Below, in pieces: positions 3,672-45,121 of a stretch of DNA of 47,658 bases. The translations under genes and the position numbers were made by a program. A model generated the notes under the pieces. That model saw only the letters and a program-made list of their open reading frames with translations. It did no database searches and had not been told where the DNA came from. The stretch covers positions 1-47,658 of the forward strand of contig CAVTCR010000023.1 of NCBI GenBank assembly GCA_963733195.1. Reading direction: 5' to 3'. Each line of letters opens with the position of its first letter. Position 1 is the first letter of the stretch. This DNA comes from an uncultured delta proteobacterium (GTDB lineage Bacteria; Desulfobacterota; Binatia; Bin18).

Positions 3672-3743
3672 GATCTAGACCGGAATAAGGACGAATAAGT
3701 ATCGGATCGGTGTCTTGCTGGGCCGCAAGTAATATTTCGCCCT

Positions 3744-4732: not shown

Positions 4733-4825
4733 AGATATCTCGACAGGTGAACCGTGATCGCAATGAGCTATGCCGTCCGGGCCCACAGCATCCCATCGAT
4801 CGGAATCCGGGCTTTAGACTCCTGC

Positions 4826-6339: not shown

Positions 6340-6347
6340 TGTTATCG

Positions 6348-8272: not shown

Positions 8273-8274
8273 AG

Positions 8275-9661: not shown

Positions 9662-9911
9662 AAAAGCTTCTCCGCCTCAAATCGGGATAGAGGCCTATCG
9701 TGACTTGAGAAACCCCCGCAGCCTCTGAAGAGTCTCGCTGTTCGGATGTCGACCGCAAACGTCAATATTCTGGGAATAGAGTATGGGTAGAAAGGCAGGC
9801 TTCACTGCCCCGCAGCCTCAACAGCTCAGCAGCAGAATGCTGAGTGCTGTTGCAGTTGTAGGTAGGTGGTGCTCCCTCCCTATCTTACGATTGACCGCTG
9901 CCTTCAAGACG

Positions 9912-10856: not shown

Positions 10857-10958
10857 TCGCTCGCCATGAACAAACGAAACCGACTGTCAGCCTCCGTCTT
10901 TCCCATGAGGTCACCCTGTCCTGTTTCATACTTTGGCCGTCAGCTCAGGTGTGTACCG

Positions 10959-16594: not shown

Positions 16595-16987
16595 ACGATC
16601 TCTGCAAATTCACCTCGCGGCTCCGACATGTTCAATCTCCCTGGGATCGTGTCTATTTTTTTAAGTGCGTATCGAACCGCGCTTCCGCCACCCGGATTAA
16701 CTCGCGATAGAAGTGTTTCTCTGGCGTCCCTGCTCGTCTACACCTGAAATTTGCGACAGATCCCTTTTTTGCCGTTGTTGGCACGCAGAATCGGTCACGA
16801 GCCCATCACGAGCATCTGATCCCTGCTTCTGCGAACCTGTAGTGTCAAGTAATGCATAATCGCCTATGCATTCGTGCACTACGGTACGATAGTTGCCTGT
16901 CAAACTTCACGGTGCCACGGGTGGCAGAGACACGCCACCGTATGTTACGCTGTCACAGCCTGTGGGAGAGAACGGAGGCTCGGCCAT

Positions 16988-18364
16988 ATGATGGTGCCTG
17001 TGCGCAAAGCTTCACCAATGCTCAGCTTCTGGCTGGCGTTGACGTTCTTTGCCGTTCTCCAGTGGATCGCGCATACACAGAACAGCATTCCCCGCATAGA
17101 CCTCATCAGCGACCTCGCGGGATTCGTGGCGCTAGCCTTCAGTGGCCTCCTGCTCAGCCGTCAGATCAATGCACATCGCCAAACGGAGCAAGAACTACGT
17201 CATGTCCACGAGGCATTGGACCAACGCGTGCAGGAACGCACGGTCGCGTTGACAGAGGCTAATACAGAATTACGTACACACATTGTTGAACGAGAGCGCG
17301 CGGAAGCGCAGCTTCGTAGTCTGATCAATGCGACTCAAGATGCCGTGATCACGATCGATCGCGAAGGACGCATCCTCTTGTTCAATCCTGCTGCCGAGCG
17401 CATCTTTGGCTACACGCGCGTAGACGTGCAGGGACAGCTTGTGCAGACCCTGATGCCCGAGCCCTACGCGAGCGAACACAATGGCTACATTGCCCGCTAC
17501 GAGCAGAGCGGCGAAGCGCGTGCGATTGGCCGGATCCGTACCGTTGCTGCACGGCGCAAGAATGGCGAGGTCTTTCCGATTGAACTGTCGGTCGCTGAGA
17601 TTACCACTCCCGATGAGACTACCTATGGTGCCTTTATCCGCGACATTTCGGACACGGTACACCTACAAGAACAACTGGTGGAGCGGGAGCGCCTAGCGGC
17701 GATTGGCACCACGGCGGCTACCTTTGCACACGAGGTCGGCAATCCACTCAATAGCATGCTCATGACGGGGCAACTCTTGGAGCGCTATCTCGTCAAGAAT
17801 CACGATCAGATTGATCAGAAGGCAGGTGAGACGCTACAAAACCTCATGAGCGAGATTAAGCGGCTCTCAGCCCTTCTCAGCGAGTTCCGCTCGCTCGCAC
17901 GCCGCCAGAAACTCGATCTGCGTCCAGTCTCACTGTCCACAGTCATCGCCGATGTATTGGCAGTGGAAACTCCGTCATACCAAGATAGCGGTGTACGTGT
18001 AGAACAGGATGTCCCTATCGATCTGCCCGTGGTTGTCGTCGATGCAGAGAAAGTACGGCAAGCGGTGCTCAACCTGTGTAAGAACGCGGTAGAAGCGATG
18101 CCACAGGGCGGAACACTGCGGGTGAGTGCGAACCACCAAGAAGGGACTATTCGTGTAGCAATCAGCGACACCGGGGCCGGTATTCCACCAGGTGTAAACA
18201 TTTTTGAGCCGTTTATCACGACAAAATCTCAAGGTACCGGGCTGGGGTTAACTATTGTTCGCCAGATTGTTGCGGCTCATCATGGCACGCTGACCTATCA
18301 AAGTACGCCGGGGCAAGGGACGACGTTCACCCTGGAGTTACCGGTCACACCGCCACCAGGATAA
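16988..18364 (+). CDS. Membrane-anchored FixL-like heme-PAS sensor histidine kinase
   Basis: Two TM helices and a coiled coil precede a PAS domain, FNPAAERIFGY...LMPEPYASEHNGYIARY...IGRIRTVAARRKNGEVFPIELS, which keeps the FixL-type proximal His and distal Arg. H-box FAHEVGNPL; N/G boxes NAVEAM, DTGAGI and GTGLGL. RBS GGAGG precedes ATG 16988. Confidence 0.9.
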   Translation: MMVPVRKASPMLSFWLALTFFAVLQWIAHTQNSIPRIDLISDLAGFVALAFSGLLLSRQINAHRQTEQELRHVHEALDQRVQERTVALTEANTELRTHIVERERAEAQLRSLINATQDAVITIDREGRILLFNPAAERIFGYTRVDVQGQLVQTLMPEPYASEHNGYIARYEQSGEARAIGRIRTVAARRKNGEVFPIELSVAEITTPDETTYGAFIRDISDTVHLQEQLVERERLAAIGTTAATFAHEVGNPLNSMLMTGQLLERYLVKNHDQIDQKAGETLQNLMSEIKRLSALLSEFRSLARRQKLDLRPVSLSTVIADVLAVETPSYQDSGVRVEQDVPIDLPVVVVDAEKVRQAVLNLCKNAVEAMPQGGTLRVSANHQEGTIRVAISDTGAGIPPGVNIFEPFITTKSQGTGLGLTIVRQIVAAHHGTLTYQSTPGQGTTFTLELPVTPPPG

Positions 18365-18396: not shown

Positions 18397-18457
18397 CAGC
18401 CCAAAGGGAACAACAGAGCAAAAAACCCACCACAAGAGTAGCAAACCGCTTCCAGTT

Positions 18458-18503
18458 TTCTTATTGTTGCAAAAGCGTGCGCCAATTTTCTCAAAAATGA
18501 GAA
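18458..18503. promoter_or_regulatory. Tandem candidate enhancer (bEBP) sites, pair 1
   Basis: TTCTTA-ttgt-TGCAAA (18458) and TTCTCA-aaaa-TGAGAA (18488), 30 bp apart. Confidence 0.75.
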
Positions 18504-18544
18504 CCACCTACCGCATTTTCCGACTGCTGACGAGGTGTATGTCG

Positions 18545-18560
18545 TGGCACTCCCTGTGCT
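18545..18560 (+). promoter_or_regulatory. sigma54 -24/-12 promoter (CBS gene plus response regulator)
   Basis: TGGCACTCCCTGTGCT, GG-N10-GC spacing. Confidence 0.8.
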
Positions 18561-18590
18561 ATTGAGAAGATCACAGCACAGGAGGTTTCT

Positions 18591-19178
18591 ATGCTTGTTC
18601 GTCAACGTATGACGCCCAATCCGGTCATTATCGGTCCACAAGCCATGCTCGCCATTGCCCAGGAGTATATGAGGGTTGGTCACTTTCGCCGGCTCCCCGT
18701 GGTGCAGGAGGGAGCCCTGATTGGGATCCTAACCGACCGTGACGTGCGTCGTCACGCCGGTTCAGAAGAGCGCACTAAAGTACAGGCAGCCATGACGGAA
18801 ACCCCGCTGACTGTTCCGCCAGACATGGAGGTTGAGGAAGCGACCAAGCTGATGTTGCGCGATCAGATCAGCGGACTTCCGGTGGTCGAGAATGGCAAAC
18901 TGGTGGGTATCATCACCGCCAGCGACATCCTCAACGCGTTTTTGGAGATGACTGGGGCCTCAACGCCTAATAGCGTGCGTATCAACTTGCTTCCCAAGGA
19001 CGGTGGCAGCCTCGCCGCCGCCGCCAAACTCATTGAGGAGAGTGGAGGTGAAATCCTAGGCGTCGGCACCCACCGTGAGCCCTCACGGAATCAGCGCGGC
19101 TTCTATCTCCGCATCTGTGGACTGGATGCTGCCACGGCCTCTACCGCCTTGCGCAAGAGTGGCTATACTGTCCTCTAG
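18591..19178 (+). CDS. CBS-pair plus ACT-like domain protein (AcuB-like)
   Basis: CBS motifs RRLPVV...GILTDRDV and SGLPVV...GIITASDI, with an ACT-like C-terminus. RBS AGGAGG. Confidence 0.88.
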   Translation: MLVRQRMTPNPVIIGPQAMLAIAQEYMRVGHFRRLPVVQEGALIGILTDRDVRRHAGSEERTKVQAAMTETPLTVPPDMEVEEATKLMLRDQISGLPVVENGKLVGIITASDILNAFLEMTGASTPNSVRINLLPKDGGSLAAAAKLIEESGGEILGVGTHREPSRNQRGFYLRICGLDAATASTALRKSGYTVL

Positions 19179-19204
19179 ATTTTGGGAGGTAGAGGACCTC
19201 GGGC

Positions 19205-20560
19205 ATGGCACTACGCGGCACGATTCTGGTGGCAGAGGATGAAGGACTGGCACGGCACAGTTTGACGGAGATCTTGCAAGAGGAAGGCTATCTGGTCTAT
19301 GAGGCTGCGGACGGGAACTCGGCACTAAAAATCCTCGACGAGGTCGACATCGATCTTGTGCTCTCAGACGTCAAGATGCCGGGCGCCGACGGCATCGCTA
19401 TCCTCAAGCAGGCACGCGAAACGCACCCCCAGACCCTGGTCATGCTGATGACCGCCTACGCGTCGGTCGACACCGTGGTAGAAGCCCTGCGTCTCGGCGC
19501 GCAGGACTATCTGCTCAAGCCGCTGTTGCTCGACGATGTGCTCAATAAAGTCCGTCGCCTACTGGAACACAAACAACAAGCCTGGGAAGTCCAGCTCCTG
19601 CGACGGGAGGTTACCCGCCATTTTGATTTCGACAGTCTCGTGGGGCGCAGTCCGGCAATGAAAGAACTCTTCGAACTCATCAAGAAAGTCGCTCCGACTA
19701 ATGCCACGGTTCTTATTACGGGAGAGAGTGGCGTCGGCAAAGAGGTTGTCGCCCGTCTCGTGCATTCTCTAAGCATGCAAAAAGAGCACGTCTTTCTGCC
19801 CATCAACACCAGTGCCATTCCGGAAACGTTGTTGGAAAGCCAACTGTTTGGGTATGTCAAAGGCGCGTTTACCGGGGCGGTCGGGAATCAAGAGGGCCTC
19901 TTTCAGCGGGCGCGTGGGGGCACGATCTTCCTGGATGAAATGGGCGAGATGCCGCTGACGCTCCAACCCAAGCTGTTACGCGCCATCGAAGCCAAGGAAG
20001 TGATGCCTGTCGGCGCGACCACTCCCGTCAAGACGGATATCCGATTGCTAGTGGCGACCAATCGCGACCTGGCCAAAGAGGTCGAAGCGGGTCGCTTTCG
20101 CGAGGATCTGTATTATCGACTGAATGTTATCGAACTCCACATCCCGCCCTTGCGTGAACGCCGGGACGATGTTCCCTTGTTGGTCGAGTACCTCGTTCGG
20201 CGGCACAATCACGATTTGAAGAAATCCTACAAAGGCGTGGACAATGCGACCATGAAGCTCCTGATGGCGATGCCGTGGAAAGGGAACGTACGTGAACTCG
20301 ATAACGTGCTCGAACGGGCCATGATCCTGGGCAACGGAGAATGGATTACCCCCGCTGACCTGCCGCGTAGTATCGAACCTGACAAAGTGATGCTTGCGTT
20401 TTTCAGTGACAACCTCAGGGAAGCAGTTCAGGCCTATGAGAAAAGCCACATCGAACATGTGTTGAAGAAGATGGCGGGTGATAAGAAGGGAACCGCCGAC
20501 GCGTTGGGCATGAGCCTCTCTTCGCTGTACCGTAAACTTGAGGACCTCGATATCGGCTGA
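19205..20560 (+). CDS. NtrC-family sigma54-dependent response regulator (REC-AAA+-HTH)
   Basis: Receiver (AEDE, SDVKMPG, LLKP), Walker A GESGVGKE, GAFTGA, FLDEMG, FREDLYYRL and a Fis-type HTH. Confidence 0.96.
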   Translation: MALRGTILVAEDEGLARHSLTEILQEEGYLVYEAADGNSALKILDEVDIDLVLSDVKMPGADGIAILKQARETHPQTLVMLMTAYASVDTVVEALRLGAQDYLLKPLLLDDVLNKVRRLLEHKQQAWEVQLLRREVTRHFDFDSLVGRSPAMKELFELIKKVAPTNATVLITGESGVGKEVVARLVHSLSMQKEHVFLPINTSAIPETLLESQLFGYVKGAFTGAVGNQEGLFQRARGGTIFLDEMGEMPLTLQPKLLRAIEAKEVMPVGATTPVKTDIRLLVATNRDLAKEVEAGRFREDLYYRLNVIELHIPPLRERRDDVPLLVEYLVRRHNHDLKKSYKGVDNATMKLLMAMPWKGNVRELDNVLERAMILGNGEWITPADLPRSIEPDKVMLAFFSDNLREAVQAYEKSHIEHVLKKMAGDKKGTADALGMSLSSLYRKLEDLDIG

Positions 20561-20579
20561 GAATGAACAAGACAAGGCG

Positions 20580-20626
20580 TTGCCAATCTTGCGAAACCTG
20601 CAGCGATTCTTTCGCGATTTAGCGAA
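20580..20626. promoter_or_regulatory. Tandem candidate enhancer sites, pair 2
   Basis: TTGCCA-atct-TGCGAA (20580) and TTCGCG-attt-AGCGAA (20611), 31 bp apart. Confidence 0.7.
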
Positions 20627-20665
20627 ATGATTTCCCATGGCACCCGAATTCCTCTGTTTTGTCAG

Positions 20666-20681
20666 TGGCATGCGATGTGCG
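20666..20681 (+). promoter_or_regulatory. sigma54 -24/-12 promoter
   Basis: TGGCATGCGATGTGCG, GG-N10-GC. Confidence 0.75.
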
Positions 20682-20705
20682 AATCCTTCGCAAGGAGGCT
20701 TGCGT

Positions 20706-20783
20706 ATGCCCCAATCAACTATTCGCGCTTGGATGACCAGCGCCCCTAACTTCATCATGCTTATGACGACACACATCACATGA
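20706..20783 (+). pseudogene. 25-codon mini-ORF, probable 5' relic of a CBS-domain gene
   Basis: AAGGAGG RBS, then MPQSTIRAWMTSAPNFIMLMTTHIT*. The start resembles the (V/I)RxxMTxxP opening of CBS proteins. Confidence 0.45.
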
Positions 20784-20802
20784 AATCTGGAGGCCTGTCC
20801 CC

Positions 20803-21321
20803 ATGGCAGAGACACGATCACCCTCAGTCCCGAATTCCCTGTGGAAAAACATTCTGGTACCGACGGACTTCTCTCCCCCTGCGGACGCCGCATTGGCGTA
20901 CGCACTCACACTTGCGCAGGCCAGTGGCGCGACACTGCATGTCTGCCACGTGGTGCCAGTTCCGCATGTGCTTGACGCACTTTATGAGCGCGGCCTCCAG
21001 CCCCCAGAGAGTGTGAAACGGATCTGGCAGAATGCACGCCGCCACATTAAGGCAATCACATGCGCAATCCCCGACGGAGAGGACGTCGCATTGCGTATTC
21101 ATTTTAGTGAGGGAGACGCCGTAGCGGGCGTGCTCGAATGGGCAGCCAAACTGAAGCCCGACCTCATTGTGATGGGCACGCATGGTCGCAAAGGTACCAA
21201 GCGGTTCTTTATGGGTAGCGTTGCCGAAGCGGTGGTGCGCCGTTCGCCCTGTCCGGTACTGACCTTGCGCGGTGAAACCACAGAAACTCGGGAAGAAACT
21301 GGGAAGAAGCGTTCGGCGTAG
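20803..21321 (+). CDS. Universal stress protein (single USP domain)
   Basis: NILVPTDFS and DLIVMGTHGRKG...MGSVAEAVVRRSPCPVL. Confidence 0.95.
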   Translation: MAETRSPSVPNSLWKNILVPTDFSPPADAALAYALTLAQASGATLHVCHVVPVPHVLDALYERGLQPPESVKRIWQNARRHIKAITCAIPDGEDVALRIHFSEGDAVAGVLEWAAKLKPDLIVMGTHGRKGTKRFFMGSVAEAVVRRSPCPVLTLRGETTETREETGKKRSA

Positions 21322-21330
21322 TAGATGATC

Positions 21331-21357
21331 GGAGGGGCACGGCGTGCCGTGTCCTCC
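21331..21357. repeat. REP-like palindrome, inverted relative of 18369
   Basis: GGAGGGGCACGGC-GT-GCCGTGTCCTCC just after the USP stop codon. Confidence 0.65.
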
Positions 21358-21440
21358 AACTGCCCATCACCTCGCGACAAATACTTTAAGACACACTATT
21401 TCTAGCTTTCATCTCTCTCTGCTTCGCGTCCTTATCTGAA

Positions 21441-21486
21441 TTCGCAATTCTGCGGCAATTCTCGTACCGGTTCTCACAAATAGGAA
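21441..21486. promoter_or_regulatory. Tandem candidate enhancer sites, pair 3
   Basis: TTCGCA-attc-TGCGGC (21441) and TTCTCA-caaa-TAGGAA (21471), 30 bp apart. Confidence 0.7.
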
Positions 21487-21526
21487 AGCTCACATCATAA
21501 AACCACGGAGATTGCGCTCTTGTGGC

Positions 21527-21542
21527 TGGTACGAGAGTTGCT
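21527..21542 (+). promoter_or_regulatory. sigma54 -24/-12 promoter
   Basis: TGGTACGAGAGTTGCT, GG-N10-GC. Confidence 0.8.
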
Positions 21543-21579
21543 CCTTTCATACGGCGACATCTCCACTTCCTCGCATACG

Positions 21580-21767
21580 GAAAGCAGCCGTTGATTGCCG
21601 AGTGGCGAAGTCGCTCGTTCCTCGGTCGTCGTGTCACAATACACGAGGGTAATATCCGCCTTGAGGGAATTGCCTTGAACCTGGATGCTGAGGGATGTCT
21701 GATTGTGACCTTAGATGATGGGTCAACCGTTCACGTTCGTGAAGGAGAGGTCTTTCCTCTTCATTAG
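21580..21767 (+). pseudogene. C-terminal (SH3-like) fragment of a biotin-protein ligase (BirA); start approximate
   Basis: LIAEWRSRSFLGRRVTI...EGIALNLDAEGCLIV.LDDG......EGEV matches the BPL_C pattern. There is no catalytic domain and no RBS-supported start. Confidence 0.7.
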
Positions 21768-21812
21768 AGGAGAGGGAATCGCATTTTCGTGAGGTGTTGG
21801 AGCAAGCCGCAC

Positions 21813-21828
21813 GGGAACGAAACTTGCT
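21813..21828 (+). promoter_or_regulatory. Possible weaker sigma54 promoter for the ferritin-like gene
   Basis: GGGAACGAAACTTGCT has GG-N10-GC spacing but a non-consensus -24 box. It ends 30 bp before the ATG. Confidence 0.45.
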
Positions 21829-21858
21829 CTGATTCAAGAACAGAGAGGAGATGAGCGT

Positions 21859-22386
21859 ATGTTCATGACGGAAGTCCTCAAACGTTGCAGTATGCTGGAG
21901 CAACGCTGCGCGGATATCTATAGCCAGTTTGCGGGCAGTGTGAACGATGACAAAGAGGTGGAGAGTTTTTTTCTTGGCCTGGCGGAAGAGGAAAAGCACC
22001 ACGCCAAGATTCTGGCGGCAGAAAAGGCGGCGTTAGATGTCGATTCCGATACCGGCTACTTTATGCCGGAGTTTTCCGCCAAACTGACCGAGATGGATAC
22101 CCTACTCAAGAAGGTGGAAGAGAAGGCACGCTCCGGCGTGACCAAAGAGGAAGCGTTTGCGTTCGCACTTGAACTCGAACAATCAGAGCTAAATACGATT
22201 TATCGTGATTTGGTCTTGATGGGACGCGCCGCAGTAAAATTGATGGCGCGGCATGTCGATGAATCCCTTTCCTTGCCCAAACATCAAGAAGGCTTGGTCG
22301 AAGGGATGCGGCGCTTTATTCCGCACAGCCCGACCCGTCAGCAGGCTGAGCTCTGGGCGGGGCAGTATCATATGGGACCTCGATGA
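21859..22386 (+). CDS. Ferritin-like / rubrerythrin-type di-iron four-helix protein
   Basis: LEQRCADIY, LAEEEKHH (ExxH) and ALELEQSELN. RBS GAGGAG. Confidence 0.8.
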   Translation: MFMTEVLKRCSMLEQRCADIYSQFAGSVNDDKEVESFFLGLAEEEKHHAKILAAEKAALDVDSDTGYFMPEFSAKLTEMDTLLKKVEEKARSGVTKEEAFAFALELEQSELNTIYRDLVLMGRAAVKLMARHVDESLSLPKHQEGLVEGMRRFIPHSPTRQQAELWAGQYHMGPR

Positions 22387-22727
22387 GACGATAAGGGAAC
22401 AAGAGAAAACTCCCTCTCAGTGCATCGTGATAAGAGCGGCGGACACGCGTTGACTGACAGGAAGGGGTGCATGAGATCGTGTCACTTGCTGAGCCAGTAC
22501 TCGACCGGCTGTGAAAGAAACACCTCCACGGCAATGCGCGCCCTCGACTTCCTCCGACAAGAGAGCGGTTTGCGTACCCGTTCTTGCTGACTCTTGGGCG
22601 TCAGGACGGCTACGGCGACAGGGTGAAGTCGAAGCGTGAACGGCGGTCGGCAGAGAATGATTGAGGCGAGATAGTCCATTACAATAGAAGCCCGATCTAT
22701 CCTAAGTGAAGCCTTATGATTCACTCG

Positions 22728-23168
22728 TTACGAAAATATTTCTTTGAAAGAGCCGGCTTTCAGAAGATCACGGAAACAGCGCAGGCAGTCGCTTTCAGTG
22801 ACGAGACCAACCAGACAGCCGTCTTTATCGATTACTGGCAGGCAGCCAAACTTCTCGCTCAGCATCTTGTCCACGGCTTCGACCACCCCAGCTTCCATGT
22901 CGATAGTCGTAACCCCCACGGTCATCACGTCACTTACGTTGATTTTGCCTAACCATTCGTGCGCCTTCGCCTTGGAGAAGCCAAGCACGGACGAAATTGC
23001 CGCTTTGTATAGATCACGCTGCGTGACGAGACCGACTACGCGTCTGTGACTGTCCACCACCGGGAGATGACGAATGCGACCCATGCTCATAATGTCATCG
23101 GCTACCCCGAGGCTGTCCGTGGCGTGAAGAGTGACAACACTGTTTCGCATGACATCTTTGATTTTCAT
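22728..23168 (-). CDS. CBS-pair domain protein
   Basis: MKIKDVM...IRHLPVVD...GLVTQRDL...GCLPVID...GLVTESD. RBS AGGAGG before ATG 23168. Confidence 0.92.
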   Translation of the reverse strand: MKIKDVMRNSVVTLHATDSLGVADDIMSMGRIRHLPVVDSHRRVVGLVTQRDLYKAAISSVLGFSKAKAHEWLGKINVSDVMTVGVTTIDMEAGVVEAVDKMLSEKFGCLPVIDKDGCLVGLVTESDCLRCFRDLLKAGSFKEIFS

Positions 23169-23203
23169 GTATGACCTCCTACTCTCCATGCCTCCAGAAC
23201 TAG

Positions 23204-23219
23204 AGCAAGAATTCTGCCG
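23204..23219 (-). promoter_or_regulatory. sigma54 -24/-12 promoter (CBS gene)
   Basis: Minus strand CGGCAGAATTCTTGCT, GG-N10-GC. Confidence 0.7.
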
Positions 23220-23257
23220 AAGATAACAGTGACTGACTTCGCAGAAACGAGCTTCTC

Positions 23258-23304
23258 TTCTCATCCATGAGAGAGTGCGGGTGGTACTTTCGCAAGTTTA
23301 GGAA
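23258..23304. promoter_or_regulatory. Tandem candidate enhancer sites, pair 4, shared by divergent promoters
   Basis: TTCTCA-tcca-TGAGAG (23258) and TTCGCA-agtt-TAGGAA (23289), 31 bp apart. Confidence 0.75.
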
Positions 23305-23352
23305 AACCTCTCTACAAAGTGTTTTTTTCGTGAGTACCCTGCCGAACTGCTT

Positions 23353-23368
23353 CGGCACAGCGGTTGCT
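23353..23368 (+). promoter_or_regulatory. sigma54 -24/-12 promoter (P-type ATPase)
   Basis: CGGCACAGCGGTTGCT, GG-N10-GC. Confidence 0.78.
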
Positions 23369-23403
23369 CGGTCACCACGGCTCGCTTATACGAAAGGCAG
23401 AAC

Positions 23404-26124
23404 ATGGCTACAGCTTGGCACACGGTATCCCCGCAGGTACTCACGCAAGAACTCCAAGCGAATGCCCACGAAGGACTGTCGAGTGTTGAGGTACAGCATC
23501 GCCTCGGCCAACACGGTCCGAACACGCTCCCTGAGCCGATCCCACCCTCACCCCTGGTGCTGTTCCTCAACCAGTTTACTAGCGTAATCGTGTGGGTATT
23601 GTTTGGGGCTGCGCTTCTTTCTGCTCTGCTACGCGAATGGATCGACGCCATTGCCATTGTCGCTATTATTCTCCTCAATGCGGTTTTGGGATTCGTTCAG
23701 GAATATCGTGCTGAACGGTCCCTCGCCGCTCTCAAGAAGCTGTCTGTTACCACCGCACGGGTGTTCAGAGATGGAGTACTCGTCACCATCCCTACGCGCG
23801 ATATCGTTCCCGGAGATCTTGTCCTGGTGGAAGCTGGAGACCAGGTTCCCGCTGATGCACGGTTGCTGTATGCGACCGGCCTCCGTGCCCAGGAAGCCGC
23901 ACTAACCGGCGAATCGACGCCCATCGATAAAACTGCTGAAACCTTGGTCGACGACACACTTGTCATTGCCGATCAGCGCAACATGGTGTTCTTCGGTACC
24001 GAAATCACTGCTGGTAAAGGGCGGGCACTGGTCGTTGCGACTGGCCTCCAAACTGAGTTAGGTCGCATTGCTACGCTCATACAAGCCACCAGCACCGAAC
24101 CGACCCCCCTCCAACGTCGTCTCGATCAGCTTGGCCACATGTTGCTGTATCTGTCGCTCGCGATCGTGGCGGTGGTCTTTGTTCTTGGATTGCTGCGTGG
24201 TGAGCCACCCGTCGCGATGCTTTTGACCGCAGTCAGCCTCGCCGTCGCCGCTATCCCGGAGGGGTTGCCTGCAATCGTAACCATCACCCTCGCGATCGGA
24301 GTGACACGGATGGTCACACGCAATGCGCTGGTTCGTCGACTACCTGCCGTAGAAACCTTGGGTTCTACTACCGTTATCTGTACCGACAAGACTGGGACGC
24401 TCACAAAGAATGAGATGACCGTGACCAGACTCTACGTCGACCGTCTCCTGTTTGCCGTCACCGGCGAGGGATACGAACCCACCGGCGAGATTCAAGAAAT
24501 CGAAACCACGGATGAACGAGGGTACCTCCGACACAGTCGGATCGATGTCCCGCTTGGCATGCGACAATTGCTCACAGCTGCCGTGCTATGCAATGGTGCG
24601 ACACTGCGAGAAGAACAGGGGAACTGGCGCATCATAGGTGACCCTACCGAAGGGGCACTCTTAGTGGCTGCAGCAAAAGCGCGAGTGTGGAAACAACCAC
24701 TGGAAGATGCCAGCGAGTTTATTGACGAGGTGCCATTCGACCCGGAACGAAAGATGATGACAGTTGTCCGTAAGACAGCGACACACACTATTGCGTATGC
24801 CAAGGGAGCACCCGATCTCCTCCTCAACAAATGTACACAATATACGACCATTACCGGAGCGACCGAGCCGCTGACTGAGGCGGGTCGACAACGTATTCTC
24901 ACTAATAATGATCTATTCGCGCACGAAGCGTTACGAGTATTAGCATTTGCACAGCGATCCCTTACCTCCCTCCCCTCTCCAATGCAGGCAGAGACCCTAG
25001 AGCATGACTTCGTTTTTCTCGGGCTTGCCGCCATGAAAGATCCCCTGCGGCCAGAGGCGAAAACTGCAGTTGCCGCGTGCCGGACAGCAGGCATTCATAC
25101 GGTGATGATTACCGGGGATCACAAAGACACTGGCGCTGCAATTGCTCGCGAACTTGGGATTCTTAACCATACAGCCCGTGCCATTTCGGGAGCCGATCTC
25201 AACTTCATGACCGATCAGCAACTTGCCGAACAAGTGCCACACACGACCGTCTATGCCCGCGTCTCGGCAGAACACAAGTTACGCGTGGTGCGTGCGTGGA
25301 AAGCGCGCGGTGCGGTGGTCGCTATGACGGGGGACGGCGTGAACGACGCCCCGGCACTCAAAGAGGCGGACATCGGGATCGCGATGGGACTGACTGGCAC
25401 GGATGTCACGAAAGAAGCGGCGGATCTGGTTGTCACCGACGACAACTTCGCCTCTATCGCCGCCGCGGTCGAGGAAGGACGTGGCATCTACGCGAACATT
25501 CGCAAAGCGGTTTACTACCTGTTGTCGTGCAACCTCAGTGAGATTCTTCTCATGTTATTTGCAACGATGTTCTTTTTGCCGCTTCCCCTTCTCCCCGTGC
25601 AGATCTTGTGGATCAATCTGGTTACGGATGGTCTCCCGGCACTCGCTTTAGCTGTCGACCCTAAGGACCCTGATCTCATGCAGCGACCACCGCGCTTGCC
25701 CACCGAGCCATTTCTGTCCTCGACTCGACTTCGGCTGATGTTCCTCCAGGGGCTGTTGATCGCGGCGATAACATTACTTACCTTTGCCTTCTATTTATCC
25801 TGGATGGGAACGAATCTCTCGCAGGCAAGGACGATTGCATTTACCGTCCTTGTGCTGGCGCAACTGACACACGCGTTTAATTGTCGTAGCGAGACCTATT
25901 CTATCTTTCAGCTAGGACTGAGCTCTAACACGGCATTGCTATGGGCTGTTGGATTGTCGGCATTGCTCCAGGTTGCGGTCGTGTTACTCCCTTGGATGCG
26001 TATAGGGTTCGGCACTACCCCATTGACTGCGAGGCAATGGCTTGTCGTTCTCGTCCTCAGCATACTACCGTTGTTTGGGACGGAGATTTGGAAGCTGTGG
26101 CGCCGCCATCAAGCTGATGGCTGA
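23404..26124 (+). CDS. P2A-type cation (Ca2+-like) transporting P-type ATPase, CtpF-like
   Basis: Motifs LTGES, AIPEGL, DKTGTLT, KGAP, MITGD, TGDGVNDAPAL and QILWINLVTDGLPA. Confidence 0.96.
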   Translation: MATAWHTVSPQVLTQELQANAHEGLSSVEVQHRLGQHGPNTLPEPIPPSPLVLFLNQFTSVIVWVLFGAALLSALLREWIDAIAIVAIILLNAVLGFVQEYRAERSLAALKKLSVTTARVFRDGVLVTIPTRDIVPGDLVLVEAGDQVPADARLLYATGLRAQEAALTGESTPIDKTAETLVDDTLVIADQRNMVFFGTEITAGKGRALVVATGLQTELGRIATLIQATSTEPTPLQRRLDQLGHMLLYLSLAIVAVVFVLGLLRGEPPVAMLLTAVSLAVAAIPEGLPAIVTITLAIGVTRMVTRNALVRRLPAVETLGSTTVICTDKTGTLTKNEMTVTRLYVDRLLFAVTGEGYEPTGEIQEIETTDERGYLRHSRIDVPLGMRQLLTAAVLCNGATLREEQGNWRIIGDPTEGALLVAAAKARVWKQPLEDASEFIDEVPFDPERKMMTVVRKTATHTIAYAKGAPDLLLNKCTQYTTITGATEPLTEAGRQRILTNNDLFAHEALRVLAFAQRSLTSLPSPMQAETLEHDFVFLGLAAMKDPLRPEAKTAVAACRTAGIHTVMITGDHKDTGAAIARELGILNHTARAISGADLNFMTDQQLAEQVPHTTVYARVSAEHKLRVVRAWKARGAVVAMTGDGVNDAPALKEADIGIAMGLTGTDVTKEAADLVVTDDNFASIAAAVEEGRGIYANIRKAVYYLLSCNLSEILLMLFATMFFLPLPLLPVQILWINLVTDGLPALALAVDPKDPDLMQRPPRLPTEPFLSSTRLRLMFLQGLLIAAITLLTFAFYLSWMGTNLSQARTIAFTVLVLAQLTHAFNCRSETYSIFQLGLSSNTALLWAVGLSALLQVAVVLLPWMRIGFGTTPLTARQWLVVLVLSILPLFGTEIWKLWRRHQADG

Positions 26125-26133
26125 ACGCTTATC

Positions 26134-26592
26134 TTACTTTTTCTCCTGCTTTGGTAGTCGGGCAACGAGGACAGGACAGGAGGCGTGACGCACGACGCGT
26201 TCAGCGACACTGCCAAGCACTACATGGGACAACCCCGTCCGACCGTGTGACCCCATGATAATGAGATCAGCGTGCTCGCGTTCCGCCATGTGACAAATCT
26301 CCCACATCGCTTCACCGACGCTCACACGTGTTTCAACGGGGACAGCACTCGTTCCCTTCTTCGCCGCGAATTCAGCCATACGTTTTTCTGCGTCGGCAAT
26401 CATTTCACCCTCCATGCGTGCGAGATCTGGATAATACACACTCTCCGGAAAGGCGAGGTGCGACATGGTCGGACTCGCATGAAAGAGGATTACTTTGGCC
26501 TTGCAAACTGCGGCTAATCCCAGCGCCCATTTGTACGCGTATTCGGCATAGTCCGAAAAATCGGTTGGTACGAGAATCGTCTTAATGTCCAT
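26134..26592 (-). CDS. Universal stress protein
   Basis: TILVPTDFS and DLIIMGSHGRTG...LGSVAERVVRHASCPVL. Confidence 0.95.
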   Translation of the reverse strand: MDIKTILVPTDFSDYAEYAYKWALGLAAVCKAKVILFHASPTMSHLAFPESVYYPDLARMEGEMIADAEKRMAEFAAKKGTSAVPVETRVSVGEAMWEICHMAEREHADLIIMGSHGRTGLSHVVLGSVAERVVRHASCPVLVARLPKQEKK

Positions 26593-26621
26593 GAGATATC
26601 CTCCTACTCAATACTACCCAT

Positions 26622-26637
26622 AGCAAAACCGACGCCA
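26622..26637 (-). promoter_or_regulatory. sigma54 -24/-12 promoter (USP, minus strand)
   Basis: Minus strand TGGCGTCGGTTTTGCT, GG-N10-GC. Confidence 0.78.
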
Positions 26638-26665
26638 GTATAGCAGGTAGGTTTTCGCCTGATTT

Positions 26666-26711
26666 TTTCTATTTTTGAGAACTCTTATGGGGCGTTTCGC
26701 AGAAATGCGAA
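26666..26711. promoter_or_regulatory. Tandem candidate enhancer sites, pair 5, shared by divergent promoters
   Basis: TTTCTA-tttt-TGAGAA (26666) and the perfect palindrome TTCGCA-gaaa-TGCGAA (26696), 30 bp apart. Confidence 0.78.
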
Positions 26712-26740
26712 AGCGGCACGCACCCGTGCGCTACAGCTCT

Positions 26741-26756
26741 AGGCGCACTTCTTGCT
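26741..26756 (+). promoter_or_regulatory. sigma54 -24/-12 promoter (tandem USP, probably also the FNT channel)
   Basis: AGGCGCACTTCTTGCT, GG-N10-GC. Confidence 0.72.
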
Positions 26757-26798
26757 CACTCGATGTCTGTATCCCACACGTCTTCAGCAGGAGTCTCT

Positions 26799-27777
26799 AT
26801 GCCGCAGGTGAGAAACATTCTGGTTCCTATCGACACCCACGAGAACGCTGGGTTGGTCGTCCAGTGGGCAACGCTCTTTGCTCACGCGACCCACAGTCGT
26901 CTCACCCTTCTCCATGTGAATGAATCGCTGGAGCTCATGAAAGCCCGCCCGGGTCTCCGGGGTGGCGGATTTCCGAGTCTCGATATGACGCTGGACAAGT
27001 GGAGGCAGCATTATCAACAGGACACACAAGCGACGCTGGGTACGCTGGCGCAACAACATTGTCATGGGCTGTCAGTTTCCCCCTGATCCTGGAAGGACGA
27101 GCCTATGCGACGATCCTCGGTGCGATCGAGACCACACGGAGTGATCTCGTCAATCATGGGCACGCATGGAAGACCGTGGTATCAACGCGCGTTTCTCGGT
27201 AGTACCGCCGAGGCGGTGTTACGTGCGAGTGACAGTCCCAATGCTGATCATCCACAACAGGAGCTGCTCGCTTCCGCCCCCACGGATGCGGCGCATGCTG
27301 CTGTCGACCGACTTTAGTCCTGCCAGTGTGGGTGGAGAAGAATGGGTGCAGTATCTCACCCAACATGGAGTGCGGGAGGTCGTCCTGGTGCATGCCATCG
27401 AGAATCCGTTACTCGATATCTACTCTCCTGATACAGCGGATCTCAATCTCAAGCACGTGAGTGAAGAGTCACGACAGCATCCACCACGCTCGGCGCAACC
27501 GTACTGGGAGAACGCGATGCAGGTTGCGAAGGCCAAACTGAGCCAGGTACGGCAACAATTGTTGGCACCCCCTTCTCCTGTGCTCCAAGCAGAAATTGTG
27601 GTTGCTGAAGGAGCACCGGCAACGGCCATCCTCACAGCGGCGGAGCAACATCAGGTAGACTGCATCGTCATGGCAACCCACGGTCGCAGCGGGGTCCGCC
27701 GCTTCGTTTTGGGCAGTGTCACTGAGAAGGTGGTTCGCAGTTCCTCGCGGCCGGTGCTGGCTGTGCCCAGCCGGTAG
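26799..27777 (+). CDS. Tandem-domain universal stress protein (frameshifts near 27080, 27150 and 27240)
   Basis: Three overlapping ORFs give NILVPID, then IMGTHGRPWYQRAFLGSTAEAVLR, then MLLSTDFS...VMATHGRSGVRRFVLGSVTEKVVR. Confidence 0.88.
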
Positions 27778-27845
27778 GTCAAAACAATTGCGTGTGCACG
27801 AAACGAAACCGCGAGGTTCTGACATCTGCAACTACAGGAAGTATC

Positions 27846-28763
27846 ATGAATGAAACTTTAAATTTCGACGCCCTCCTGCCCGCGGAGATCGCCAAGAAAG
27901 CTGAAGACGTCGGTGCGCGCAAATGTCACTTGCCATTCTGGTCACTGCTGACGCTGGCGGTGCTGGCGGGAGCCTTCATTGCCCTGGGCGCCGTGTTCTC
28001 CACCACCGTGAGTGCCGGCACTGCCGGGGCTTTGCCCTTTGGGGTCGTTCGCTTACTCGCGGGGTTGGTATTCTGCCTCGGCCTTATTTTGGTGATCGTT
28101 GGTGGGGCCGAACTCTTTACCGGGAATACCCTGATCAGTATGGCCTGGGCAAGTGGCGTGATCTCGACGCCGCAGCTGCTGCGCAACTGGCTCATCGTCT
28201 ATCTTGGGAATCTGCTCGGAGCGGTAGCGACTGCAGCATTGGTGTATCTTTCTCAACAGTACACATTCGGCAACGGAGCGGTGGGAGTCACTGCGTTGGA
28301 GATTGCACGGTCCAAGACTAGTTTGGGCTTCGTGCAAGCGGTGATGCTCGGCATTCTCTGCAATGGGTTGGTGTGTCTCGCGGTATGGCTCTGCCTGGGG
28401 GCGCGGAGTATGACAGACAAGATTCTCGCAATTCTCTTCCCTATTAGTGCTTTTGTCGCGGCAGGGTTTGAGCACAGTGTGGCCAATATGTACTACATTC
28501 CCGTTGGCATGTTGATCAAAACCGACACGACTTTTCTTACTGCGATTGGCAAGAGCGTCAGTAATTATCCGAGCCTGACGTGGGCAAATTTTCTGTTCGT
28601 GAATTTAGTGCCGGTGACAATCGGCAATATCATAGGCGGTGTGATGCTCGTGGGGTTCACGTACTGGTTTGTCTATTTGCGGCCGGAAGTCCGAACGACT
28701 TCTAGTCTTCAGACGATAAGGCACGAGGATGATCCGCCGAGAGCGTTGCTAAAGACAGATTGA
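27846..28763 (+). CDS. focA: Formate/nitrite transporter (FNT) family channel, FocA-like
   Basis: LAGAFIALG, GAELFTGN, GILCNGLVCLAVW, GFEHSVANMY and VTIGNIIGG. Confidence 0.92.
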   Translation: MNETLNFDALLPAEIAKKAEDVGARKCHLPFWSLLTLAVLAGAFIALGAVFSTTVSAGTAGALPFGVVRLLAGLVFCLGLILVIVGGAELFTGNTLISMAWASGVISTPQLLRNWLIVYLGNLLGAVATAALVYLSQQYTFGNGAVGVTALEIARSKTSLGFVQAVMLGILCNGLVCLAVWLCLGARSMTDKILAILFPISAFVAAGFEHSVANMYYIPVGMLIKTDTTFLTAIGKSVSNYPSLTWANFLFVNLVPVTIGNIIGGVMLVGFTYWFVYLRPEVRTTSSLQTIRHEDDPPRALLKTD

Positions 28764-28916
28764 ACACCTTTAGCCGGGTCTGTGTTGGGGTGAGTAGAAT
28801 CACCAACCCTGTTGATCGCGGGCAGTAAAGATCACGAGCTCCCTGTGCTCAATCGACAGGTGTATCGGGCATTCCACACAGTCAAAACAGGGAGTGACTA
28901 CATCGGGAGCGCGACA

Positions 28917-29486
28917 ATGACGTCACAACAATTCCTCCAACGACTGCTCGACTTTGAACGTCGCGTTGGCACGTTGTATCAGAGTTTGGGAAACCGGCCT
29001 GCTTTCCATGGGGAACTGCGAGCTTTCTGGCATCGCATGGCCGAAGACGAGCGTCATCATGTATTCATTCTCCAGCGGAGTAAAATGATAATGGATCTGC
29101 AAGAATCCGTGCCTGTAGGTTCTGACGACGTCTTTCGCGCCATTGAGCAGCAGTTGACGACCGCCGAGGCAGCACTAGGACAGATAGACATCAGCGCGGA
29201 TGAGGCGTTGCGCCACGCACTGATCCTCGAAGGTTCAGAGTTGAATCGTCTTGACGGCGCGTGGTTTCACTGCTTTCCGCCGGCACTGCGAGCTCTCCTG
29301 ACGGCCCTCATGCCAGAGGATAACCTTCACCTCCGACGGTTGCTCGAAACCGTCCATGCCTTCAGCTCTAATAAAGAGCTACATGAACAGGCCACCACAC
29401 TCTGGGTGAAATATCAGCGTGCCAAGACCAACCCTATGTCAGTGGATGGGAAGACAGACTCGCAGCACAGCAAAACACAGTCTTGA
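28917..29486 (+). CDS. Second ferritin-like / rubrerythrin-type protein
   Basis: FERRVGTLY, MAEDERHH, ALILEGSELN and EDNLH; same motif order as 21859..22386. Confidence 0.75.
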   Translation: MTSQQFLQRLLDFERRVGTLYQSLGNRPAFHGELRAFWHRMAEDERHHVFILQRSKMIMDLQESVPVGSDDVFRAIEQQLTTAEAALGQIDISADEALRHALILEGSELNRLDGAWFHCFPPALRALLTALMPEDNLHLRRLLETVHAFSSNKELHEQATTLWVKYQRAKTNPMSVDGKTDSQHSKTQS

Positions 29487-29595
29487 AGCTCGTCCCTAGC
29501 TCTACTACGCCAGATTTTAGGTGGTGTGTTAGATCTGGATTTCAGGATACCTCCTCCTGTCCGAACCTGAAATGTACCGGTGACTCTCTACGCTG

Positions 29596-29611
29596 CGCAA
29601 AGGCAGTGCCA
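29596..29611 (-). promoter_or_regulatory. sigma54 -24/-12 promoter with no intact downstream gene
   Basis: Minus strand TGGCACTGCCTTTGCG, followed by RBS AGGAGGAGG (about 29550-29558) and CTG AAA instead of ATG. Confidence 0.7.
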
Positions 29612-29725
29612 GCCAAGATATATGCGTCTTCGGTCTTGGTTTTGCACACAAGGTCAGGATAAGTTGCGATTTCATTGAAATGGTGTCTATTGGTAGATCT
29701 CATTAGGAACGATGGAGAAGAGGTG

Positions 29726-29772
29726 TTCGCGTTCTTAAGAAAGCGACGACGAGAAATTCGCAATTGTAAGAA
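29726..29772. promoter_or_regulatory. Tandem candidate enhancer sites, pair 6
   Basis: TTCGCG-ttct-TAAGAA (29726) and TTCGCA-attg-TAAGAA (29757), 31 bp apart. Confidence 0.72.
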
Positions 29773-29816: not shown

Positions 29817-31430
29817 ATGACAGCTTCTTCATCAGTCTCCCACAGCGCCGAGATGCCAACATTCACTGACCTTCTGGCTGCGCTCGCACATCCTGCATGT
29901 TATCCGCATCACCCAGCGAACGTTGAGGTCATGCAAACCCATATCTCTGCCGTCTTCTTGGCCGGTGACGAAGTCTATAAGCTCAAGAAGCCAGTGAGGT
30001 TTTCTTTTCTTGATTACTCTACACTGGAGTTGCGTCGTCATTACTGTGAGGAAGAAGTACGACTGAATCATCGGCTCGCACCAACTGTGTATCTCGGCGT
30101 CGTGCCCGTGCTAAGGACCAGCGATGGCTACCGTGTCCGTGAAGCCGTGAACATGCAGGATGCGACTGTGGTGGACTATCTCGTCCGCATGCGGCGTCTG
30201 CCGCCCGAACGGACGCTTGACGTACTGATTACCAATGGACAGGTTACGAAGTTCGGAATTCATGCGCTCGTGAAACGCTTGGTGCACTTTCACAATACTG
30301 CAGCAACCAGCGGTGCGGCAGAGTATGGTGCACCTGCAGTGGTGTGGCAGGCGTTAGCCGATAACTTCTCAGCGACGGCACCGTTTGTCGGCCAAACCAT
30401 CAGTGAACAACAATACCGTGTGATTCAGGAGTTCAGTCAGCAGTTCTTTGCCGAGCACCAGGAGTTACTCAAGGAGCGCGTTCTCCAGGATCGAGTGCGC
30501 GAAGGCCACGGCGACTTACGATGTGACCACGTCTACTTCCTCGATGAAGGCATCGCCATCATTGATTGTATCGAGTTTAGTCCACGCTTACGCACCTGTG
30601 ATGTCGCCTCAGAACTCGCGTTTCTGGCCATGGATTTGGAACTGCGTGGTGCAGTTACCTGGTCTGGTGAATTGGTCCGTGCCTACGCAACTCAGGCAGA
30701 GGATGAAGCGCTGTTTACCTTATTGCCGTTCTATCAGTGCTATCGGGCGTACGTACGTGGGAAAGTAGAGAGCCTCAAAAGTACGGAATCAGAGATCCCA
30801 GCAGAGGAACAGGAACGTGCACGGCAACAGGCTCGTCGCTTGTTTCGCTTGTCGTATCGCTATGCTCGGGGTGCACTGACTCCGGCGCTGATTGTAGTTT
30901 GTGGTCAGATTGGCACAGGCAAATCCACGGTAGCCCAATATCTGAGCGAGCAGACGGGTTTTGCTGTGCTGAACTCCGATGTGATCCGCAAGCGGCTCGC
31001 AGGCCTATTGCCAACTGCACGTGCAAGGGCGGACTTCTACCAACCGGAATTTACCCGTAAAACCTATGACGCGTTACATAACCAAGCTGAGGAGGAATTA
31101 CGCAGCGGACGTGGCGTTATCGTCGATGCGACTTACAAGCATCAAGACGATCGCAATGCCATTCTTGCATTAAGCAAACGGTGTCACGTTCCGGTGTTGT
31201 TTGTGGAGTGCCAAGCCAATGCGGCAACTGTCGAGAAGCGGTTACGCGAACGCGAACGCCGTGACGATACCGTCTCAGACGCAACATGGGCGCTTGCACA
31301 ACTGGAACGCGAGAGCTTCCCTCTCTTCAGTGATCTCCCGGAGCAATGCCATGTTGTCGTAGATACAGAGGGTGATATAGAAACAGCTCTCATGCGGGTT
31401 GAAGAGAGACTCGGCGTGAGAAAATCGTAA
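29817..31430 (+). CDS. Aminoglycoside-phosphotransferase-like / AAA_33 P-loop kinase fusion (Rv2004c-like)
   Basis: QTHISAVFL, YKLKKPV.F.FLDYST, EVRLNHRLAP, EGHGDL and IDCIEF, then Walker A GQIGTGKST, SDVIRK and VDAT. Confidence 0.9.
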   Translation: MTASSSVSHSAEMPTFTDLLAALAHPACYPHHPANVEVMQTHISAVFLAGDEVYKLKKPVRFSFLDYSTLELRRHYCEEEVRLNHRLAPTVYLGVVPVLRTSDGYRVREAVNMQDATVVDYLVRMRRLPPERTLDVLITNGQVTKFGIHALVKRLVHFHNTAATSGAAEYGAPAVVWQALADNFSATAPFVGQTISEQQYRVIQEFSQQFFAEHQELLKERVLQDRVREGHGDLRCDHVYFLDEGIAIIDCIEFSPRLRTCDVASELAFLAMDLELRGAVTWSGELVRAYATQAEDEALFTLLPFYQCYRAYVRGKVESLKSTESEIPAEEQERARQQARRLFRLSYRYARGALTPALIVVCGQIGTGKSTVAQYLSEQTGFAVLNSDVIRKRLAGLLPTARARADFYQPEFTRKTYDALHNQAEEELRSGRGVIVDATYKHQDDRNAILALSKRCHVPVLFVECQANAATVEKRLRERERRDDTVSDATWALAQLERESFPLFSDLPEQCHVVVDTEGDIETALMRVEERLGVRKS

Positions 31431-45047: not shown

Positions 45048-45121
45048 GTGACCTCTATCGGCGAGTCGTTTATCTACTATAACAAAATCACTCATCAAGT
45101 GAGAGTGCGCAGGCTCGATTG

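Follow-up and report, generated by a model that had tools for sequence, protein, structure and literature searches.

Paired, phased palindromes are the standard enhancer design of sigma-54 promoters, and such enhancers usually lie 100–150 bp upstream and operate with integration host factor (IHF). Oxygen sensing through a haem PAS domain, in which a proximal His and a distal Arg have established roles, is known from FixL of the rhizobial FixL–FixJ–FixK pathway. DosR is a LuxR-type regulator, and sigma-54 enhancers are not known to play a part in its regulon. In Burkholderia cenocepacia, the lxa gene set is induced at low oxygen, overlaps with the DosR regulon and is needed for survival of anoxia; according to the available text of PMC3721108 it includes genes for universal stress proteins (USPs), alpha-crystallin, a cation ATPase, ribonucleotide reductase, phosphofructokinase and the BCAM0308 family. 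NmpR of Myxococcus xanthus, as described in the accessible part of PMC11841059, binds pairs of GCGCA-N5-TGCGC palindromes 14–15 nt apart, autoregulates an operon that begins with a CBS-domain gene, and controls genes for USPs, a P-type ATPase, cbb3 oxidase and HemN under hypoxia. The DNA analysed here (the window) is a stretch of 47,658 nt from an uncultured member of the Binatia (contig CAVTCR010000023.1, assembly GCA_963733195.1), whose genome is about 6.9 Mb in size and 93% complete. It carries six pairs of palindromic sites beside -24/-12 promoter elements, in a gene cluster that includes an NtrC-family activator (nt 19,205–20,560) and a sensor kinase with a FixL-type PAS domain (nt 16,874–18,364). 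Comparison with related genomes indicates that the pairs are probably the upstream activator sequences of this activator, and that the cluster is a low-oxygen survival regulon of the dormancy type; the probability of this reading is put at about 0.72.

The design is a familiar one; neither the wiring nor the motif has a description in the literature searched. That search, with subscription journals, RegPrecise and supplements outside its scope (the last two of which may contain a similar motif), found no published description of the regulator, motif or wiring, and the available parts of PMC4641369 and PMC12316311 contain nothing on any of them. The initial annotation had called the operator new, which stands for the motif itself within that literature but not for its paired, phased layout; in the accessible part of PMC11841059 the NmpR layout is nearly identical.

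As in FixL, a predicted haem PAS domain with the proximal His and distal Arg directly precedes the HisKA-HATPase region of the kinase, and there is a membrane anchor. Unlike the FixL–FixJ pair, the partner would be a sigma-54 activator acting directly on its targets rather than FixJ and FixK; no cognate FixJ lies beside the kinase, the neighbours being a CBS gene and the activator, and against the rhizobial FixL model the kinase scores 220 (cut-off 850). With the enhancers of AtoC, NtrC and XylR/DmpR the pairs share their closeness to a -24/-12 element and their two sites for dimers on the same face of the helix, but generic enhancers are usually farther from the promoter, and here the distance is mostly 28–63 bp with no exact IHF consensus. 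AtoC and AtoS are the best NCBIfam matches of regulator and kinase, both far below cut-off, and the AtoC site, two inverted 20-bp sites in the available text of PMC3118216, is unlike the present motif in sequence. The clustered USP, CBS, chaperone, cation ATPase and BCAM0308-type genes (the last in relatives G010 and G001) resemble the lxa and DosR sets. The lxa genes carry a TGA-N6-TCA motif with Anr-like candidate regulators, and they are not known to use sigma-54 enhancers; the shared promoter motif found here differs from the Anr/Fnr and DosR boxes, which were not themselves searched for. Most similar is NmpR, likewise an NtrC-like activator with sigma-54 promoters, palindromes 14–15 nt apart, an autoregulated operon with a CBS gene in first place, targets that include USP and P-type ATPase genes, and haem-based oxygen sensing (predicted in the present case). 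The differences lie in the motif (GCGCA-N5-TGCGC, 15 bp with a 29–30 bp repeat, against TTCBYA-N4-TRVGAA, 16 bp with 30–32 bp), in the recognition helix (SVRKIQYR in NmpR-like proteins against SLSSLYRK), in the input (NmpU-T-S, a protoglobin phosphorelay, in Myxococcus and one FixL-type PAS kinase here) and in the targets, as none of the cbb3 oxidase or hemN genes reported in that partly available source was seen here. In the same genome no protoglobin (PF11563) match was found.

The paired sites and their promoters

All twelve 16-mers listed in the initial annotation were recovered at their positions, as pair 1 (nt 18,458–18,503), pair 2 (20,580–20,626), pair 3 (21,441–21,486), pair 4 (23,258–23,304), pair 5 (26,666–26,711) and pair 6 (29,726–29,772), none with an assigned strand. 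The distances within pairs are 30, 31, 30, 31, 30 and 31 bp. The sites are intergenic, including that at 23,258, which overlaps the longest open reading frame (ORF; 22,728–23,264) of a gene whose real start is probably at 23,168 (146 aa, as in orthologues). The consensus first proposed, TTC(G/T)CA-N4-TG(C/A)GAA, describes sites that exist but is written too tightly, as most of them carry mismatches: two match exactly, two with one mismatch, seven with two, and one (26,666) with three. A consensus derived from relatives reads TTC(T/C/G)(C/T)A-N4-T(G/A)(A/G/C)GAA with an A/T-rich spacer.

With up to two mismatches to the first consensus, the window contains 17 matches against 7.5 ± 2.9 in shuffled sequence, and none of 100 shuffles reached 17, so that the motif is commoner than chance. 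When each pair was left out in turn, between zero and three other places in the 6.9 Mb scored as high as the held-out pair. A genome-wide scan using a matrix trained on relatives only, with pairs counted at 30–32 bp, returned ten pairs, of which six are those of the window. Every other spacing from 20 to 45 bp gave at most one pair, except 29 bp with four. These four were discounted; three represent a single repeated coding stretch and the fourth is the pair C53:12161 read one base off (C denotes contigs of the genome under study, G000; G, genomes of relatives; L, loci). The repeated stretch spans several genes and occurs on three contigs (C10 5,608; C11 12,371; C46 44,339). Strong single sites elsewhere in the genome lie mostly within genes and were not counted. 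In relatives, the paired pattern is found up to 42 times per genome (G010), compared with 0–4 times for a reversed control, and at 44 loci chosen by protein alone the distance between neighbouring sites is 30–32 bp in 37 of 42 cases.

Eight sigma-54 elements had been assigned to the pairs, with gaps of 41, 39, 40, 38, 48, 28, 29 and 114 bp, all of which proved exact. They score 11.4–17.4 bits with a promoter matrix built from 76 elements of relatives; in background sequence, scores of at least 8 bits occur at a rate of 0.00043 per position. Pairs 1 to 3 each have one on the plus strand (18,545–18,559, gap 41, 15.2 bits; 20,666–20,680, gap 39, 14.4 bits; 21,527–21,541, gap 40, 16.5 bits). Pairs 4 and 5 have elements on both sides, in agreement with the divergent use proposed for them (pair 4: 23,205–23,219 minus, gap 38, 15.7 bits, and 23,353–23,367 plus, gap 48, 15.0 bits; pair 5: 26,623–26,637 minus, gap 28, 15.8 bits, and 26,741–26,755 plus, gap 29, 11.4 bits). 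The most distant element belongs to pair 6 (29,597–29,611, minus, gap 114, 17.4 bits). While all eight elements are present, not all serve an intact gene: the minus promoter of pair 6 has none, and that of pair 3 enters a birA-like remnant. Matches to the -24/-12 consensus alone are about as frequent in the window as chance would give (54, with 51.3 expected); it is from their position that these elements draw their value.

The gaps had been described as falling on steps of about 10 bp. Phasing does exist, but a step of 10 bp fits poorly (R = 0.57, p ~0.07, for the eight gaps in the window) and one of about 10.5–11 bp is indicated; at 10.5 bp R rises to 0.78 (p ~0.004) and the 114-bp gap is also in phase. 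The same geometry was examined in relatives, using 98 distinct pairs from 116 loci (some chosen by the pattern itself) with 193 flanks. Outward-facing elements numbered 61 and inward-facing ones five. Of the former, 51 lie at 27–29, 38–42, 49–52 or 58–63 bp and none at 32–37, 43–48 or 53–57 bp. The best period is 11.25 bp with R = 0.69, a value that overstates the effect because many of these promoters are orthologous; when every gap value is allowed a single count, a period of 11 bp gives R = 0.51 (p ~5e-4). The exact IHF consensus is absent from all ten of the ten enhancer–promoter gaps inspected, where degenerate sites may remain. Weaker sigma-54-like elements of 9–11 bits occur just before the ferritin-like gene (21,813–21,827, plus), facing the 3' end of the sensor kinase gene (18,418–18,432, minus), within the spacer of pair 3 (21,455–21,469, minus) and 11 bp behind pair 2 (20,638–20,652, plus).

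Pairs 3 and 6 are best understood from relatives. In G010 the promoter of pair 3 stands before an intact birA-like gene and one for an acetyl-CoA hydrolase, whereas here it leads first into a 3' remnant of the former that retains only the BPL_C domain (nt 21,552–21,767, plus). In relatives, the regulon has as a conserved component a second biotin ligase homologue, a birA-like gene of 263 aa with an acetyl-CoA hydrolase/transferase gene behind it (L006 12,216–14,344). In G001 and G002 the minus promoter of pair 6 leads to a gene for a cytochrome c-like protein; this gene is missing at the present locus, as is the multi-haem cytochrome gene found in both relatives between pair 6 and the gene for a kinase with an AAA_33 domain (nt 29,817–31,430). 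The 45 bp that separate pair 6 from the AAA_33 gene are too short for a promoter. A second sigma-54-like element faces that gene from 80 bp upstream of pair 6 (29,631–29,645, plus), weak here at 8.3 bits; at the matching place G001 has 17.1 bits (82 bp), G010 11.9 bits (80 bp) and G002 6.7 bits (50 bp). At pair 6, G002 carries a deletion of 31–32 bp, or three turns, and its distances are 81 and 50 bp. Judged from this layout, pair 6 may be an enhancer within a transcript leader, or a roadblock. Downstream enhancers as a general feature were considered and rejected, as 14 of the 98 pairs have an inward-facing element against about 17 expected, and only the pair-6 group is conserved.

The regulator, its signal and competing explanations

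The activator encoded at nt 19,205–20,560 (plus) consists of a receiver, an AAA+ domain and a Fis-type HTH domain. It keeps the phosphorylatable Asp55, the Walker A and B motifs and GAFTGA (residues 220–225), and its recognition helix is SLSSLYRK (437–444). The genome contains rpoN and about 25 sigma-54 activators, so that adjacency is insufficient to assign the regulator. When 118 AAA+-HTH regions were placed in a tree, whose backbone is weakly supported, proteins with the SLSSLYRK helix formed a clade (support 0.98) in which this is the only activator of the genome. Matches at 44–87% identity are present in 26 of 40 relatives (E 1e-120), and a query of the genome collection with the regulator gave two close relatives among the 80 loci returned. 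A hand count over 151 Binatia genomes, with a strict pair pattern and with presence of the regulator defined as a match to its C-terminal part (a set that includes paralogues), found at least one pair in 51 of the 82 genomes that have such a match and in two of the 69 that have none, figures whose significance is overstated because the genomes are related to one another. Where a genome has one pair only, it often adjoins the regulator gene (G172, G115). Two genomes first scored as lacking the regulator (G022, G008) have it split by a contig start or into two pieces. Co-occurrence and clade uniqueness thus bear out the original proposal that the pairs are enhancer sites of this protein, and from sequence comparison the assignment is well supported.

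The regulator operon begins with a gene for a CBS-pair protein (nt 18,591–19,178, plus), whose 51–69% identical orthologues also adjoin the regulator. Pair 1 precedes this operon, as first reported. Among 17 loci with regulator orthologues of at least 66% identity, one without upstream DNA, a matrix trained without these loci found the arrangement at 15 of 16; at the other the pair stands ahead of a kinase–regulator operon. Ten of the 15 autoregulatory pairs have a sigma-54 element at cut-off. Positive autoregulation is thereby supported as a conserved layout, while the switch-like behaviour (bistability) suggested for the loop is speculation. In the present genome the sensor kinase gene lies outside the autoregulated operon. 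With a matrix trained partly on the orthologue loci, no pair was found at the nine loci of a paralogous subclade with the helix SRSSLYRK (L022, L023, L025, L026, L028, L033–L036), and distant clade members have one at three of eight loci. Each SRSSLYRK paralogue, with one changed helix residue, adjoins a kinase of its own. In G035, a receiver-less activator of 314 aa with the same recognition helix lies directly behind a ferritin-like gene (L153 7,254–8,749; L156 334–1,278); it is the sole match to the regulator in that genome, which has 15 pairs.

The putative oxygen sensor is a membrane-anchored PAS-HisKA-HATPase kinase (nt 16,874–18,364, plus; probable start 16,988). The initial annotation named neither this candidate sensor nor the second promoter element upstream of pair 6. 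The best PDB matches of its PAS domain are FixL structures (1d06, E 4.7e-28; also 1dp6 and 1y28), with the proximal His (codon at 17,477) and the distal Arg (codon at 17,537) aligned, the latter to the position mutated to Ala in 1y28. Both residues are kept in all 12 homologous PAS domains at the loci examined. With domain and key residues in place, analogy with FixL suggests that the protein binds haem and that the kinase responds to falling oxygen. The domain is present in single copy in this genome; elsewhere, by hand count, 47 of 49 genomes with a FixL-type PAS, from seven families, also carry the regulator, 18 of them within 10 kb. A protoglobin kinase directly adjoins the regulator instead in three of the 40 relatives (G033, G036, G039), and a protoglobin-STAS gene lies less than 4 kb from it in G007 and G013. 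Across relatives, two unrelated haem sensors thus appear to feed one regulator, and oxygen as the signal is a strong inference. In several members of the family, protoglobin-STAS genes also occur between the regulator and the FixL-type kinase (L007 2,615–3,640; L010 4,181–5,155; L163 1,436–2,449), a second haem sensor within the same island.

Several observations weigh against the reading of the pairs as enhancers of a low-oxygen activator. No pair at the strict pattern is found in 31 of the 82 regulator-bearing genomes, five of the 15 autoregulatory pairs have no sigma-54 element at cut-off, and none was found at the pair on contig C30. A FixJ-like regulator on contig C62 (197 bits, cut-off 255) is a rival partner for the kinase. 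NmpU-type protoglobin kinases are predicted to work when oxygen is present (PMC11841059), and lineages may therefore differ in the sign of the signal. G002, of the same genus and 100% complete by markers (350 contigs), has 14–15 strong, near-consensus pairs (examples at L151, L154 and L155), yet neither the regulator nor its CBS partner nor the sensor kinase was found in that assembly, and its orthologue of pair 2 is not preceded by the regulator. The simplest reading is that one missing contig would account for all three. G002, where 15 pairs occur and all 18 activators scored fall outside the regulator's clade, is also an argument that some other protein, one of the roughly 25 activators or a repressor, reads the motif and that the 19,205 gene is merely a target, as a second activator is predicted to be in G010. 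This is nevertheless improbable: pairs and regulator co-occur across the class, single pairs are often found beside the regulator gene, the helix-changed paralogues have no pairs nearby, and the second activator has no close orthologue here (best match 47%). That the sites match by chance, or are copies of some repeat element, is hardly credible. The consensus is indeed loose, with two or three mismatches at eight of 12 sites, and -24/-12 matches alone are at chance level within the window, but the spacers between sites have no sequence in common, and spacing, phase and type of target are constant across the class. Together with the reversed controls, the geometry in relatives, the relatives-only scan, the shuffles and the leave-one-out test, this leads to rejection of a chance or repeat origin; by these comparisons the paired sites are a real, conserved operator.

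With sites and regulator accepted, the signal might be something other than low oxygen, such as NO, CO, redox or energy state, or the output of several kinases. Haem of the FixL type binds CO and NO as well, and the USP, CBS, ClpB, Lon and Hsp20 genes are general stress genes. The FixL-type PAS is missing from 35 of the 82 regulator-bearing genomes, G022 has four paralogues of the kinase, and family f4 has the receiver-less variant of the regulator. This alternative is unlikely in view of the conserved His and Arg (12 of 12), the substitution of a protoglobin kinase in three genomes and the presence of an lxa-family target; the same types of target are, in the accessible parts of PMC3721108 and PMC11841059, induced by low oxygen in Burkholderia and controlled by NmpR. 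Somewhat harder to sustain is the view that this is the NmpR system of Myxococcus, the same family by descent, whose motif has drifted. The layout is the same (CBS-first operon, USP and P-type ATPase targets, 14–15 nt between sites; PMC11841059, as far as available), protoglobin kinases adjoin the regulator in some Binatia, and in 11 of 14 Myxococcaceae genomes the best match, the one fetched, falls in the Nmp-locus clade. Those matches, however, are only 41–45% identical, as for unrelated activators. The two groups form separate clades (support 0.96–1.00 and 0.98, on the weak backbone) with different helices, the NmpR-like proteins having been chosen by neighbourhood (protoglobin kinase, N5 pairs) and not from the M. 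xanthus sequence; N5 pairs occur at seven of 21 myxobacterial loci. Membership of the NmpR family was not accepted, given the N4 half-site spacer, the TTC/GAA ends, the other clade and helix and the lack of a protoglobin relay here, and a distant kinship may exist. The preferred reading thus remains a low-oxygen regulon under the 19,205 activator.

Proposed mechanism and significance

The FixL-type PAS domain of the kinase would bind O2, and the kinase would become active when O2 falls and phosphorylate Asp55 of the activator, as their adjacency suggests. Two activator dimers would then occupy the two palindromes, three turns apart on one face of the DNA, and nucleate an AAA+ ring; the sites are present and their occupation is the predicted part. 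The ring would meet sigma-54 polymerase 28–61 bp away, in steps of about 11 bp only, by a short bend that depends on the face of the helix, a mechanism proposed from a geometry found in many genomes. Each pair is symmetric and would therefore be able to drive promoters on either side. Induction of the targets would include the activator's own operon, whose layout is that of a positive loop and would amplify the response.

More tentatively, and at somewhat below an even chance, the system may be a dormancy programme of the whole class Binatia, with a separate family of sigma-54 activators, an operator of its own, interchangeable oxygen inputs and short-range enhancers in 11-bp steps. The inputs would be a FixL-type haem PAS kinase, a protoglobin kinase or, for the receiver-less form, a ferritin-like partner. 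The enhancers would work without IHF and in both directions, the AAA_33 kinase operon would be driven from inside its transcript leader, and the three-turn deletion of 31–32 bp in one genome would have kept the phase to both promoters. If true, a regulon resembling DosR and lxa would have arisen independently here, and its promoters would form a natural data set for enhancer–promoter geometry.

The Binatia are uncultured, and knowledge of their regulation must therefore come from sequence. The specificity of the motif would make the whole stress regulon readable in any Binatia genome (up to 42 pairs, in G010), give many unannotated genes a likely low-oxygen role, and provide transcripts that mark oxygen limitation in metatranscriptomes of soil. 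In two such runs from one study, only 5–9% of words were present, on short contigs from relatives that reveal neither start sites nor strand nor level. The route from haem-PAS kinase to sigma-54 activator would be a further wiring for the dormancy genes familiar from the DosR, lxa and NmpR systems. Some 60 natural promoters with stepwise spacing make the face-of-helix rules of short-range sigma-54 activation testable.

Regulon members and neighbouring genes

Predicted targets within the window encode USPs, CBS-pair and ferritin-like proteins, a P-type ATPase, a formate/nitrite transporter and the AAA_33 kinase. Behind pair 2, which has orthologous pairs at L005, L006, L008, L011 and L018, lies a USP gene (nt 20,803–21,321, plus). 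The birA-like remnant behind pair 3 is followed by a ferritin/rubrerythrin-like gene (21,859–22,386, plus; PF02915, E 3e-5; orthologues 66–84% identical). Pair 4 stands between the 146-aa CBS-pair protein gene (22,728–23,168, minus) and that for a P2-type cation-transporting P-type ATPase (23,404–26,124, plus). Pair 5 stands between a USP gene (26,134–26,592, minus) and a tandem-domain USP gene (26,763–27,777, plus), which is fragmented into two USP ORFs in this assembly and is a single ORF of 323–345 aa at L013 and L015. There follow genes for a formate/nitrite transporter family protein (27,792–28,763, plus) and a second ferritin-like protein without a Pfam match (28,917–29,486, plus), and, behind pair 6, the kinase with a C-terminal AAA_33 domain (29,817–31,430, plus), for which no PDB relative was found and which we take to resemble Rv2004c.

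Outside the training set, pairs were found at C53:17753, C30:37577 and C27:39176, and the relatives-only matrix adds C53:12161. The first has a minus-strand element at a gap of 61 bp before a gene for a small secreted protein, with heavy-metal ATPase and outer-membrane efflux genes in the neighbourhood. The C30 pair lies between a CBS and a USP gene, and that on C27, with an element at a gap of 59 bp, precedes a paralogue of the 28,917 ferritin-like gene (41% identity). Weaker pairs on C71, C56, C6, C33, C50 and C26 were dropped, having no sigma-54 element within 200 bp. Both pairs on C53 (12,161–12,206 and 17,753–17,799) lie in this heavy-metal ATPase/efflux region, each before the gene for a small secreted protein, and the two proteins have similar N-termini.

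In G010 and G001, the targets include genes of the BCAM0308 family (a low-oxygen lxa family, above cut-off), ClpB, Lon, Hsp20, GAPDH, BON and DUF2267, and the same islands carry RtcB, archease, ribonucleotide reductase and phosphorylase genes; no tblastn match to the BCAM0308-family gene was found in the genome under study. A pair in G010 lies beside a multicopper oxidase gene. The second sigma-54 activator that is a predicted target in G010 (L212 8,689–10,110; also L203) has an unassigned N-terminal domain and suggests a cascade.

Besides the tandem USP gene, genes for an amidase, Tex and a methyltransferase (34,353–35,422, 35,583–36,579 and 44,218–45,125) are each broken into two or more ORFs, which suggests indel errors in the assembly rather than real breaks. 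A remnant of an IS1-family transposase (15,418–16,143) lies just upstream of the sensor kinase gene, and nt 1,716–12,696 (minus) hold an exopolysaccharide cluster with genes for glycosyltransferases, WecG, a sugar transferase and parts of a tyrosine kinase.

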